DNA of 64,000 nucleotides. Origin: an uncultured Nitrospiraceae bacterium (GTDB lineage: Bacteria > Nitrospirota > Thermodesulfovibrionia > Thermodesulfovibrionales > UBA6898). A program made the position numbers. Below, piece after piece: positions 34,801 through 37,800 of the stretch. The DNA lies in NCBI GenBank assembly GCA_963811165.1, contig CAWEQH010000004.1:704001-768000 (forward strand). Reading direction: 5' to 3'. The first letter of the stretch is position 1. The number at the start of each line of letters is the position of its first letter.

Positions 34801-37800
34801 TATCAAACCTGTTACCATATCTATTTTCAAATTCTTTCGACAACTTATTGTTTCTGCTTAGCACACTTGAAAGAGCCCTTCCACCTTGAAAAAATTTCAG
34901 CGGGTGCTGCGTGCCTATCACATAGAGATACTTCTCTTTTTTTGTCTCATATTCGGCCATCATATAAAAGTCCTTAAAAAGCGAATTCTGGCGTATTGAT
35001 TCGGGACCACCCTTCCACGTAATGAATTTAAATTCTGCTATCCGTCTGTCTGTCTCCAAATCAAAAGCCCGCCCCGTATTACCGGCACCAAGTGATAATG
35101 ATTCAACTACCTCTCCGTCTTGCAGTATGTGCGGTAGCGACAAAAGAATTCCGACTGCGTGAATTAGAACATTGACTTGTCCGGCAGCTTGCTTCATAAA
35201 CAGGGCAGCCTCCAGCAAAGGGCTCTGAATATCGCCAGATGAAAAGAATGATATGCAATCATTCCGATTTTTGAGGTGAAAACTTGCTTCAAGATCAGAT
35301 ATACGCGTTGCGAGCGAACCTTGTTCAAAGTTCTGAATTAAAGTAGCTGCTTCAATTAATGAAGTCACTTGGCACCTCTTCAAAAACCAACGTTTTGGCT
35401 AACCGGCGCGCGAAAGGAGGCGAAGCCGACTGAAGCGCGTCCGGTTGAGCCGCGTGTTAGGCCCGACCGTGTTAGATGTCGGGCCTGAGCTTACTCTTGC
35501 CTGACTATATCGACCGAGATCTCCACCGCCGGAATCGTTCCTCTGTTCTCAAGCCAGTGTGTGGTGTTCCTATCCTCGGGCCAGCCCACTCCCGGCCCAT
35601 AGTCCGTAGCGACTCCATTTCGATGGTCAGTGATCGTTCCTTGCAGTATGTAGACGGTGCCTGGTCTGTCTTTATGGTCGTGAATCGGGCCGAAGACGCC
35701 TCCAGGCTCGATGGTCACCATACGCATTCGAAGTTGGCGCCCTGCCATGCCCTCGATCTCAGGGCCAAGGTCAACCGTTGCAAGTAACTTCACCGTAACA
35801 CCTTTCGTCTCAGGTGCCACCTGTTCGTTGCTCATCGTGCTCTCCTCTCTGTACTTCCAGGGCCTAACTAGTTATTAGCCAGTTACAGGACTATAGCAGA
35901 AAGTTTCAGTCCGGTCGATAGCTATTGAAGGCAATGTTGACATATCGAAAGAATATAATTATACGTTTCAAATGACTAATACGCTATTTGCAATGTTAGT
36001 CATATTCAAATTCCATTCAACCTATATCAAGTGATATTTTGACTCCATTCGAGTCCGTCCTGAAAAAAAAGGCAGTACCTGATTCCCGCCACGCGGATTA
36101 TATGCAACAACCGCATGGCATCCACGTGCTTCTCGGTCACAGCGATGTAAGGACAACGATGATCTATACCCATTGCGTTCCGAGCAGGACCGTAAAAGAG
36201 GCCAAGAGTCCTCTGGATTTCTGAGAAGGCCTTTTTTTTGCGCAGGCTACCGCCGTTTATTGCAGCCCTCCACTGCTGCGGCAATATCGATTGACTGAAA
36301 ATCCCCTTTTCTTCTGAGACCCGCATTTCTGATAAGGCAAGCGTGAAAGAGGGAACAGGCCCCCGATCCGCTCAAATCATTGTAAAGCAGTGAGTAGTGA
36401 GAAGTAAATAGTCAAAAAAGATGTGAAAGGTGAATCGTGCATTGTAACAGGACAGACATACGACATAATGTCTTTTGATGGTATTATTTGTGTTCTTTTG
36501 TCCCCTTCGAAAATTTAGGTTTGCGACCGAGGCCGAAGGTGAAAGATTTTAGGCTGTCTGAACCCGCAGCGGGTGAGTTCCTAAAATCTACTGAGGCTGA
36601 ACGAGCAGACCGTGAATAATTTTCGTCGGGGCGGATTCTTTACGTTAGCTTGCTTGGGCGAGCAAGAAAGGTAACTGGGGTGCGGGGCAACGCCCCGTCT
36701 CTTTATCTTTTATTTGGAAATTTAAAATAAAGTCTAAATCAACAGATGCGGAGCTTCTTTCTTACCAGCAGGCGACACTCCGCACCCGGGAAAAGGGGCT
36801 CCGCCCCTTATACCCCGGGCGCTTTTCATTAATGCGAATGAAAAGTGCCCAAAAGCACGCACCCCACGGAAAATCCTTTTCGCTTTGCTCGGTCGGTCCG
36901 GCTAAATTTTAGAAACTCGCCCCGAAGCGGGACTCAGACAGTCTAAAATTTCTTACGCCGGCCCTCGGTCGCAAATCGGGATTTTCCAAAGGGGCCCCCT
37001 TTGAAACAAACACATTTATAAACCGTGGCTGCATTTCAGTAGTTCCCCTTCGAAAATTTAGGCGAGCACGGTTGCCCGGAGGGTTAAGCATTTTCCCATG
37101 TTCGAGCACCGATGTTAGGGGCGAGTTGGAAAATGTACCGAGGACAACCGGCGCAGCCGTTAAGAATTTTCGTTGGGGTGCACTTCTTTCGGTTACATTT
37201 CTTGGAGCAAGCAAGAAAGGTAACTGGGGTTCGGGGCAAAGCCCCGGTGAAAACTACAACTTGATACCCGGCCAGGTTTCAATCGGCTCCGTCGACCTTA
37301 CGACATGCATCCCGGCGTCTGCAAATCTCCGAAATGCCGCGTCGGCCAAATCCGTATAGTCCATAACGCCTGGAACAACAACGGGCGACGTGCAGTCTTC
37401 GAGGAGGTAGACTTTTTCTACCAGCTTCCTGTCCCGGGCCAGAATATCTTCGAGCAGGTCGGCGATGGTCCAGGCGACGCAGTGGCTCTTGGCCTGCCCG
37501 GCGATGACGACGGCATCGAATTCAAGGAGCTTCTTAAAGAACTTCTCGCTCTTTAGGCCGAGTTCCTCACCTTTTGGCCCTTCGCGCACCTCCGGCCCGA
37601 GTACGGAATAATGCTCGGTAAAGGGCCGGTCGCCCTTGACATGAAAGTCAGGCTGACTGTACCGCGCCACGCTTTGGAAAAAAATCGCCTCTTCAACGGA
37701 TGCAACCAGTGCATGCCCGATGCCGCCCAACATGCCGTGGTAAGGCCATATGGTGAGATCGTATTTTCCCCCCTGTCTGAGCTTCCTTGTGTAGTGTAAA

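Follow-up and report, generated by a model that had tools for sequence, protein, structure and literature searches.

The window, a 64,000-nt stretch of DNA, was reported to hold three copies of a repeat of about 200 nt at C4:740499–741245, and all three are there: a solo copy, c1, followed by a divergent pair, c2 and c3 (Table 1). The 3' hairpin of c3 stops 5 nt short of the stop codon of a convergent gene for 347 amino acids (37254–38297, minus strand), and a C-terminal fragment of an integron integrase (36039–36224) adjoins the copies on the other side. In c2, the terminal hairpin occupies 36795–36807 and the T run 36791–36794 on the minus strand; the 3' 60–73 nt of this copy were also found standing alone at other places. 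Window positions 36678–37253 match C1:364737–365307 with 82% identity over 585 nt (BLAST). A copy in G002 is 94% identical to c3 across exactly 37045–37246, that is, exactly the module.

Table 1. Features of the repeat locus, in window coordinates.
Feature	Position	Strand	Description
Sigma-70-like promoter of c1	36460..36487	+	ACGACA, 16-nt spacer, TG-extended TATTAT; 9/12 matches; predicted
Copy c1	36499..36701	+	B subtype, solo; long irregular hairpin P1–P8, hairpin P9, terminal hairpin GGGGC-AAC-GCCCC, then T-rich tail
Terminator-like site of c1	36682–36698	+	Predicted from sequence
3' extension past copy c2	36748..36783	-	GCGGAG...CTCCGC hairpin; common to the paralogous C1 locus
Copy c2	36790..36996	-	A subtype; minus-strand end GGGGC-GGA-GCCCC + TTTT, terminator-like
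Spacer between 5' ends of the divergent pair c2/c3	36997..37041	.	45 nt; not conserved across pairs of other loci
Copy c3	37042..37249	+	B' subtype, partner of c2

A profile built from the three window copies was run with nhmmer for two iterations over the window's own genome (G000). It gave 29 matches, on contigs C1, C4, C8 and C10, of which 17 are full or nearly full length; the survey had given 27 matches with 17 full-length copies. Fifteen matches run from model position 1–2 to 197–199 and two stop at positions 150 and 172, while nine are 3' fragments beginning at positions 100–158 and three are 5' fragments. BLAST identity between the window copies and the remaining ones is 67–86%. Most G000 copies form divergent pairs of an A arm and a B arm with 5' ends ~45–85 nt apart, so that the two subtypes and the divergent arrangement described before are indeed the usual unit; solo B copies seem to be what remains of pairs after loss of the A arm. 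A protein-coding repeat was ruled out by copy lengths that fall in all three residues modulo 3 (13/17/23 across 53 copies) and by the stop-free runs, the longest of which has a median of 62 codons. Likewise, no Pfam family was found on the ORFs overlapping copies in G000. With its 29 matches there, the repeat is small, non-coding and present in many copies, as MITEs are. With nine of the 12 partial matches truncated at the 5' end, an RNA intermediate in copying would even be conceivable. A retro-element was rejected because no RT gene was found in G000, G018, G037 or G042.

For 15 full G000 copies, RNAalifold gave 42 base pairs, 20 of them with both sides changed. Pairing holds in 96.1% of the 617 cells of this alignment, compared with 38.0–58.2% when the partners are slid, and the 20 pairs changed on both sides compare with 2–6 after sliding; the observed pairing or covariation was matched in none of 500 shuffles. 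These values, recomputed here on the same alignment, are identical to those given earlier. Among 53 distinct copies from other genomes, in an alignment fitted to the model and hence with counts biased towards structure, 94.4% of 2129 cells are paired (39.0–57.9% slid) and 37 of the 42 pairs are changed on both sides (13–24 slid), with 0/500 shuffles attaining the observed values. The conserved core module of ~170–200 nt consists of a ~140-nt irregular rod, P1–P8, followed by a 12–14-bp hairpin, P9. P9 corresponds to the further hairpin that had been noticed beyond the 42 pairs, and it occurs in 47 of the 53 distinct copies with many different stem sequences. After P9, a terminal GGGGC-NNN-GCCCC hairpin is present in the window's own family, f1. 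All copies were said to end in this sequence; the hairpin itself, in the form GGGGC-NNN-G(C/T)(C/T)CC, stands in 15/15 full G000 copies, but the exact GCCCC holds for 13 and the other two have C/T variants.

The fold is strand-specific. G-U and U-G cells number 115 against 31 for A-C and C-A, and predicted folding makes the given strand more stable than its complement in 15/15 copies. Asymmetric internal loops of fixed sequence (UGUCUGAG / CGAGUU) are preserved across families. The repeat thus has a real and old fold that is both covariation-supported and strand-specific, as in structured RNAs. Among known motifs checked by eye, kink-turns, the hammerhead core and CsrA-type GGA loops do not fit the copies. 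One copy that is orthologous between G000 and G001 is identical at 172/198 positions (87%), whereas its flanks agree at only 52/120 and 47/120 (about 40%); neighbouring coding DNA agrees at 104/150 and 160/200. The contrast between copy and flanks argues that the fold is under selection or is being homogenised, and gene conversion between copies, instead of selection, could account for the high identity. At one locus common to G000 and G002, the copies differ in subtype and look mosaic.

The reported absence from Rfam was confirmed: Rfam 15 gave no match at E ≤ 10 in window positions 35500–38000, nor any at E ≤ 1 for elements at 11 loci of other genomes. The divergent pair had no match in the plasmid and phage collections. 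We found no description of this repeat in the literature, and the available part of the Thermodesulfovibrio yellowstonii genome note does not mention a repeat of such kind.

The claim that the repeat has its own promoter is credible for a small subfamily and was not supported as a general property. The putative sigma-70-like promoter of c1 ends ~13 nt ahead of the module, and a similar arrangement, ATGACA-N16/17-TATTAT/TATTGT, precedes both C4:109673 and a copy in G002. A -10-like box had been counted in two thirds of the copies, but when a positioned -35/-10 site was required, only 3/20 G000 copies and 6/103 copies overall had one (shuffles, 2.4 ± 1.6, maximum 9). In G064, a genome of the second family described below, the spacer of the module pair has no promoter recognisable to the eye. 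Credible promoters of the element's own are thus predicted convincingly only for the small subfamily, 6/103 copies, to which c1 belongs. In four of the five complete A arms, a hairpin and a run of at least four T close the sequence. Six sequencing runs were listed, three of them with shares of 0.05–0.07, all assembled contigs covering parts of copies. One metatranscriptome contig covers 36792–36864 without a mismatch; it gives no start, end or strand, nor an RNA origin.

As proposed earlier, the repeat spreads well beyond its source genome. It was found in 33/61 relatives, with 0 to >36 copies per genome and often at contig ends, and it is present in 28/36 genomes of the same family and in 24/27 of a second family of Nitrospirota, f19. 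Two complete genomes, G018 and G042, have 5–7 copies. Five same-family genomes that are at least 96% complete (G005, G011, G014, G020 and G035, among the 36) have no match. Filled and empty orthologous sites were seen at three loci among G000–G005, with remnants in G002 and G005. Copies have thus been gained or lost between sister species, and this presence or absence at orthologous sites is again what is expected of a MITE. Copies have no preferred direction towards the genes beside them (the four combinations count 20/17/15/13 across 79 copies), and this, together with the unrelated neighbours, argues against a cis-regulatory leader or riboswitch. Single-copy loci have no conserved neighbourhood past one genus. 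The view that the repeat spreads like a mobile element is supported by the filled and empty sites, the random orientation and the variable copy number, but no ISL3-type ends were found in f1 and no target duplications at the G000 filled sites. The A-type hairpin of one arm is interrupted by an IS30-like element.

Element ends are seen in the second family. Four copies in one f19 genome, G064, have a common unit of ~560 bp, within which lies a divergent pair of modules; the inverted partner module was recognised by the covariance model (E = 4e-4). G098 has an ISL3 element of 1380 bp; the ends of the unit agree with its two inverted repeats at 21/25 and 19/25 positions and with each other at 19/25. 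Target duplications, read by eye, are 8/8, 8/8, 7/8 and 6/8, and both copies of the G098 element have exact 8-bp duplications. In f19, the divergent module pair therefore sits within an element of ~560 bp that is bounded by ISL3-type inverted repeats and flanked by target duplications of 8 bp, and only in this family do ends and duplication length match those of an autonomous element. The survey had itself cautioned that the repeat might be a MITE, with the divergent pair as two arms of a larger inverted-repeat element; this fits the G064 unit, but such ends were not found in f1. There, the strict ISL3 end motif occurs at 1/24 G000 copies and at 1/43 copies elsewhere in f1, while 4.7% of background windows contain it, and a G000 scan with a 15-nt ISL3 end consensus gave scores of 8–11, the background level. 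Flanks at C1:364937, C1:364993 and window copy c2 look ISL3-like by eye only, and given these two results we do not claim them as ISL3-type ends. No target duplication was recognised by eye at the G000 filled sites and pairs, where the copies are old, and symmetry in f1 is limited to homologous terminal hairpins.

No protein partner had been proposed, and we found none. Of the 125 ORFs near 13 loci of G000, all but three, an IS30-like transposase and two RAYT-like genes, are housekeeping genes, and TnpA and TnpB are not among them; no family is common to 23 ORFs beside arrays in other genomes, nor to 16 ORFs beside f19 copies. The ISL3 transposase family, PF01610, is present in G098 and as a fragment in G173. 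It gave 0 matches in G000, G037 and G064, so that no autonomous ISL3 partner was found in these three genomes with copies. G037, with >36 copies, also has no Y1, TnpB or RT gene, which leaves current mobility in these genomes without an explanation. TnpB (PF07282) gave 0 matches in G000, G018, G037 and G042, and a TnpB guide-RNA scaffold or an IS200/IS605 end was rejected on this count.

We consider the repeat probably a MITE-like, non-autonomous mobile DNA that carries a putative structured-RNA module, closest to bcr1 of Bacillus. A module pair bounded by ISL3-type repeats and 8-bp duplications fits such DNA carrying a fold better than it fits free-standing small-RNA genes, although the two readings are compatible and not exclusive. 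A transposase acting in trans would move the unit, one of ISL3 type where ISL3 ends exist; copies would then diverge, recombine with one another and decay, while selection would keep the fold of the given-strand transcript. A few copies, c1 among them, might make this transcript from a promoter of their own, and the others by read-through. We think it more likely that the RNA would serve the element itself, or end or stabilise transcripts, than that it is a dedicated regulator acting in trans. It is conceivable, and we hold this only tentatively, that the module represents a true, as yet unnamed class of structured small RNAs in Nitrospirota: a portable RNA gene, with promoter, ~200-nt fold and terminator when intact, usually arranged as a divergent pair of paralogous RNAs, that would travel in vehicles differing by lineage (the ISL3-type MITE in one family) and be kept for an RNA activity by cells or by the element.

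The available part of a review that treats bcr1 describes a ~155-bp intergenic, non-autonomous mobile repeat of the Bacillus cereus group whose positions vary between strains, whose RNA-level fold is preserved by compensatory base-pair changes, and which has 5-bp direct repeats at its borders and is transcribed (PMC3184786). As far as that part goes, the window repeat is similar in being intergenic, mobile and non-autonomous, with compensatory changes that preserve its fold, and it differs in having 8-bp duplications, seen only in f19, and in that its transcription is a prediction only. It further belongs to another lineage, has a longer fold (one or two hairpins after the ~140-nt rod), is conserved across two bacterial families and occurs as divergent A/B pairs. 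Like ISL3-derived MITEs, the G064 unit has imperfect terminal inverted repeats, 8-bp duplications, near-identical copies and no transposase gene. In contrast to them, it does not contain a deleted IS, as the module has no match in the G098 element; the interior is also older and more widespread than the ends, and no ISL3-type ends were found in f1. In the accessible portion of a survey of structured-RNA motifs, many copies per genome together with inconsistent orientation to genes are taken to indicate a likely selfish element (PMC11109978), and our repeat, multicopy, structured and randomly oriented, resembles the mobile or repeat candidates of that portion.

Alternatively, the copies could be a host family of small-RNA genes, often divergent A/B pairs, that was multiplied on the chromosome by duplication and recombination for a cellular function, and of which an ISL3-type element merely captured one pair. 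Deep conservation of a strand-specific, covarying fold in two families would agree with this, as would the orthologous copy preserved far beyond its flanks, the putative promoter and terminator-like end of c1 and its small subfamily, the hairpin and T run that finish the A arms, the many-copy genomes with no transposase candidate, and the f19 genomes with one match among the matches listed. We nevertheless think it unlikely. A range from 0 to >36 copies among relatives, with five nearly complete genomes of the same family having none, is unusual for a needed RNA, single copies decay into remnants, a positioned promoter is confined to so few copies, and single-copy loci do not keep their neighbours past one genus; the target duplications and inverted repeats of G064 mean that the unit really transposed. 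At the other extreme stands a DNA element with no RNA function, a foldback or MITE palindrome in which correction of one arm by the other, or a need for single-strand DNA hairpins in movement, would produce the apparent compensatory changes. The main domain is after all one long imperfect hairpin, the family is mobile or repeat-like, promoters are rare, and the IS30-like element entered an A-type hairpin, as such elements do at DNA palindromes. Arm-to-arm correction, however, predicts Watson-Crick pairs on both strands, which the 115 to 31 ratio contradicts, and neither internal loops of fixed sequence kept across families nor the survival of the orthologous copy between diverged flanks is easily explained for inert DNA. 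A need for internal hairpins is, moreover, not known for DDE transposition of the ISL3 type. We regard this second alternative as quite improbable.

If a Y1 (HUH) transposase, for instance a RAYT, moved it as single-stranded DNA, the repeat would be REPIN-like or of IS200/IS605 type, perhaps also a TnpB guide-RNA scaffold. REPINs are inverted doublets of a hairpin-forming repeat that persist long in a lineage, and the window repeat shares all of these properties; its modules are, however, five to ten times longer and multi-helix. Terminal hairpins, a strand-specific fold and the lack of visible target duplications in G000 would also suit such a mechanism, and the REP-associated tyrosine transposase model matches two G000 proteins whose genes each lie ~1 kb from a copy, with E values of 2e-18 and 1e-16 but below the curated cut-off. 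These two genes are not flanked by copies, though, the copy lying ~1 kb off on one side only, and across 61 genomes RAYT-like genes do not track the repeat: both are present in 19 and both absent in 14, while 14 have the repeat alone and 14 the protein alone. G037, G018 and G042 have no Y1_Tnp match and no TnpB, and G035 has 11 protein matches and no copy of the repeat. On this co-occurrence we rejected a RAYT/REPIN origin, which is very unlikely. Still further from the data are unusually long integron attC-type recombination sites, an idea raised by the integrase fragment next to the window copies, by full integron integrases in G000, G024 and G031, and by three same-orientation copies ~1 kb apart in G024, each after a small opposite-strand gene. 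The attC boxes have the consensus RYYYAAC/GTTRRRY, and inspection by eye of the full G000 copies did not find them in the right order. The window fragment turns its 3' end, not its promoter side, to the copies, the intact G000 integrase (C10:705661–706617) has its nearest copy ~10 kb away, divergent pairs 45–85 nt apart are unlike cassette arrays, and G037 with its many copies has no integron integrase over the cut-off. Position and architecture thus led us to reject attC sites, which we would count as scarcely credible.

If the module of this MITE-like DNA is an RNA, it would be a lineage-wide structured class missing from Rfam and an example of small transposons transporting a non-coding RNA gene, which would bear on how regulatory RNAs spread. 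Even on an ordinary reading the repeat matters: it breaks assemblies, as its many copies at contig ends indicate, and supplies promoter-like and terminator-like signals beside housekeeping genes. The covariance model can be used to mask or label such stretches in genomes of Thermodesulfovibrionales and related groups. The repeat also marks rearrangement hotspots, as seen in the arm interrupted by the IS30-like element.

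A MITE-like mobile repeat (MITE, a non-autonomous derivative of a DDE transposon) is the description that best fits the module family. Its conserved cargo, a structured module with a strand-specific fold, most likely works as RNA. Three copies (c1–c3) occupy window positions 36499–37249. A profile built from them and iterated twice over the genome under study (G000) gave 29 matches on contigs C1, C4, C8 and C10, bearing out the copy counts and coordinates of the survey's finding. The whole model was spanned by 15 matches and two were cut, at model positions 150 and 172; nine were 3′ fragments beginning at positions 100–158, and three were 5′ fragments. 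One copy with an internal deletion accounts for two of the partial matches, C1:616252 and C1:616321.

Module copies and genes considered as movers or inserted elements
Feature	Location	Strand	Remark
Module copy c1	window 36499-36701	+	
Module copy c2	window 36790-36996	-	
Module copy c3	window 37042-37249	+	
Integron integrase fragment, 61-aa open frame	window 36039-36224	+	TIGR02249, E 5e-7
Full integron integrase	G000 C10:705661-706617		396 bits, over cut-off
RAYT-like gene (NF047646)	G000 C4:110847-111491	-	below cut-off of 80
RAYT-like gene (NF047646)	G000 C8:505950-506723	+	below cut-off of 80
IS30-like transposase gene (HTH_38 + rve) inside A-type P9 hairpin	G000 C4:613134-614123 (L008:4078-5064)	-	

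RNAalifold on the 15 full G000 copies returned the same 42 pairs, with both-side changes in 20, and the fold statistics claimed earlier were reproduced exactly: 96.1% of 617 cells paired versus 38.0–58.2% when the partners were slid, and the observed values were reached in 0 of 500 shuffles. A covariance model was then built and used to gather 53 distinct copies from other genomes. In their alignment, which was fitted to the model and thereby favours structure (the within-genome MAFFT alignment agrees), 94.4% of 2129 cells pair versus 39.0–57.9% slid, and 37 of the 42 pairs have both-side changes versus 13–24 when slid. The structure is stronger, not weaker, on these copies beyond G000. P1–P8 form a single long irregular hairpin of ~140 nt; its internal loops are fixed in sequence, with UGUCUGAG and CGAGUU to either side of a variable hairpin. 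On the 3′ side of this rod lies P9, a hairpin of 12–14 bp present in 47 of the 53 copies with many different stem sequences; the consensus fold missed it because subtypes A and B are shifted by one column. A terminal GGGGC-NNN-GCCCC hairpin closes the module in the window's own family (f1). The fold belongs to the given strand, on which G-U plus U-G cells number 115 versus 31 for A-C plus C-A, and folding energy was lower on that strand in 15 of 15 G000 copies. Rfam gave no match in the window or on copies at 11 loci of other genomes.

The two subtypes were told apart by aligning copies together with their flanks. A-type copies start with GGGGCCCCTTTGG, have a P9 whose sequence is unlike that of B-type copies and terminate in GGGGC-GGA-GCCCC; in four of the five complete copies a run of four or five T comes next. 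B-type copies start with TCCCCTTCGAAAATT and end in GGGGC-AAN-GCCCC, the T run being mostly missing. Every A-type copy (6/6) is divergently paired with a B-type copy, their 5′ ends ~45–85 nt apart, and at E ≤ 1e-5 the G000 adjacencies are eight divergent, one convergent (c1/c2) and one tandem; c2/c3 is a divergent pair. Window 36678–37253 matches C1:364737-365307 (82% over 585 nt), indicating that the pair was duplicated as a unit. Solo B copies look like the product of pair decay. At C4:146628 the B copy still has ~20 nt of an A-type 5′ end next to it. At the C10:955 locus a B copy plus ~50 nt upstream survives in G000, and the sister genome G002 has only the 3′ half of a copy, in opposite orientation. 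The final 60–73 nt of the A type are also found alone (93–95% identity), some of these pieces adjoining the end of the IS30-like element, which may insert preferentially into the A-type P9 hairpin. At C4:105040-105068, 29 nt of this IS30-like end remain, joined at the same breakpoint.

Orthologous sites of sister species were compared at three G000 loci with conserved flanking genes. The ClpA/MatE locus holds a module pair in G000 and G002, and its intergenic region measures 124–154 nt in G003 and G004 versus ~700 where filled; the left edge of the insertion coincides with the terminal hairpin. The GatA-side copy is absent from G003, G004 and G005, with a remnant in G002. G000 and G001 share the aconitase-side copy, which G004 lacks and of which 51 nt remain in G005. 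No target duplication was visible at any G000 site. Module neighbours in G000 are housekeeping genes. Copies are oriented at random towards the genes beside them (79 copies; 20, 17, 15 and 13 in the four combinations), which rules out a leader or riboswitch. The covariance model found the family in 33 of 61 relatives, and in 28 of 36 f1 genomes, with none to >36 copies per genome, many of them at contig ends. A phylum sample gave matches in 29 of 151 genomes, chiefly those of a second family, f19 (24/27), where they cover model positions 1–176 without the terminal hairpin. Plasmid and phage collections gave no module match.

The f19 genome G064 contains three units near-identical over ~560 nt and a fourth, older one. 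Each is ordered as end repeat, diverged opposite-strand module (core still detected by the model, E = 4e-4), ~43-nt spacer, B-like module and other end repeat. An ISL3-family insertion sequence of 1380 bp, present twice in G098 and itself without a match to the module, has inverted repeats like the unit ends: one end is identical to the right repeat at 21/25 positions, the other to the left repeat at 19/25. By eye, 8 bp are repeated at the flanks of the four units (two exact, one 7/8, one 6/8), and exact 8-bp duplications flank both G098 copies. An ISL3-type end motif lies 46–74 nt beyond P9 in 4 of 15 f19 copies (G064, G128, G173). On this evidence a divergent module pair travels in f19 as the interior of an ISL3-type MITE. 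No ISL3 transposase was found in G064. In f1 the end motif was seen beside one of 24 copies in G000 and one of 43 further f1 copies, versus 4.7% of random windows, and a longer end consensus scored at background.

Copy c1 looks like an RNA gene with a predicted promoter and terminal hairpin: a TG-extended TATTAT, separated from an upstream ACGACA by a 16-nt spacer, ends at 36487, with the module starting 13 nt later, and a hairpin with a T-rich tail lies at 36682–36698. This promoter arrangement recurs ahead of C4:109673 and of two copies in G002. The claim that two thirds of copies have a -10-like box did not hold up, resting on loose -10-like hexamers; among 103 copies with enough upstream sequence, only 6 had a positioned -35/-10 site versus 2.4 ± 1.6 in shuffles (maximum 9). 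The promoter-like arrangement is probably a subfamily trait; none was visible by eye in the G064 spacer. Public RNA runs supplied contigs only, with small shares, and are no evidence of transcription. CCGGAATGACA, in which ATGACA is the -35-like box of the subfamily promoter, recurs ~45 nt upstream of solo B copies (C4:109673, G002 L053:1908 and 13802, L026) and in other small repeats (C4:105890, C4:108240).

Between G000 and G001, the module copies at the aconitase locus agree at 172 of 198 positions, versus 52/120 and 47/120 in the columns on either side and 104/150 and 160/200 in adjacent coding DNA; several differences are compensatory (e.g. GGUUAC/GUAAC to GGCUAC/GUAGC). Similarly, the 94% identity between c3 and a G002 copy extends over precisely the module, against 77–80% for genes of the two species. 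Selection on the fold would account for this, as would frequent gene conversion between copies, which is suggested by the mosaic-looking G002 arm at the ClpA/MatE locus.

Our literature search found no description of the family. We regard bcr1 of the Bacillus cereus group as its nearest described relative in kind; according to PMC3184786, bcr1 is mobile, transcribed and keeps its fold through compensatory changes. Motif surveys class such cases as mobile or repeat sequence candidates (PMC11109978). Unusual here are the depth of module conservation, across two families, the pairing of two paralogous arms, and the location inside an ISL3-type vehicle in f19 and not in f1.

Other candidate movers were considered. 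The two G000 genes resembling RAYTs (REP-associated tyrosine transposases) score 66 and 61 bits and both lie ~1 kb from module copies, but such genes do not track the repeat (both in 19 genomes, repeat only in 14, gene only in 14, neither in 14; 61 genomes). The C8 gene has a LexA-like gene on one side and one for a Y-family polymerase on the other, and G035 has 11 matches to the RAYT-like protein. In G037, which has the highest copy number, Y1 transposase, TnpB and reverse transcriptase were all not found. Two observations suggested an integron reading: the integrase fragment, which directly adjoins the repeat cluster and matches the C-terminus of integron integrases over its last 33 residues, and the cassette-like spacing of copies in G024. 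The reading is rejected on both position and architecture. Full integrases also occur in G024 and G031. There (L044:2745-4946 and L046:3952-5251, respectively) copies lie ~1 kb apart in one orientation, their 3′ hairpins ~15 nt past the stop of small opposite-strand genes, including one for an ORF6N-domain protein, with PIN and RAMA genes nearby; this layout is like that of a cassette array in an accessory region. Just downstream of the window's fragment, a short repeat (36235–36372) matches C10:704942-705078 at 93% identity, ~560 nt past the 3′ end of the full integrase gene, and C1:365305-365397 at 89%, next to the paralogous module pair.

Head-to-tail modules are frequent in G037 (L048, L099, L105, L111), with 20–30 nt between the 3′ hairpin of one and the next module; many are directly preceded by a conserved stretch, AAATCC..AACCTTATAA, and several contigs start or stop within a copy. 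Divergent copies at L054:5627-5798 (-) and 12681-12849 (+) flank three large genes (370, 875 and 943 aa); the similarity between them continues past the module at either side, as in the arms of a composite element. A family of small repeats unrelated to the modules lies at window 39655–39875 and ~27397–27641, its 221-nt copy being 85% identical to the second window copy, and seven more sites on C4, C8 and C10 hold pieces of 58–91 nt.
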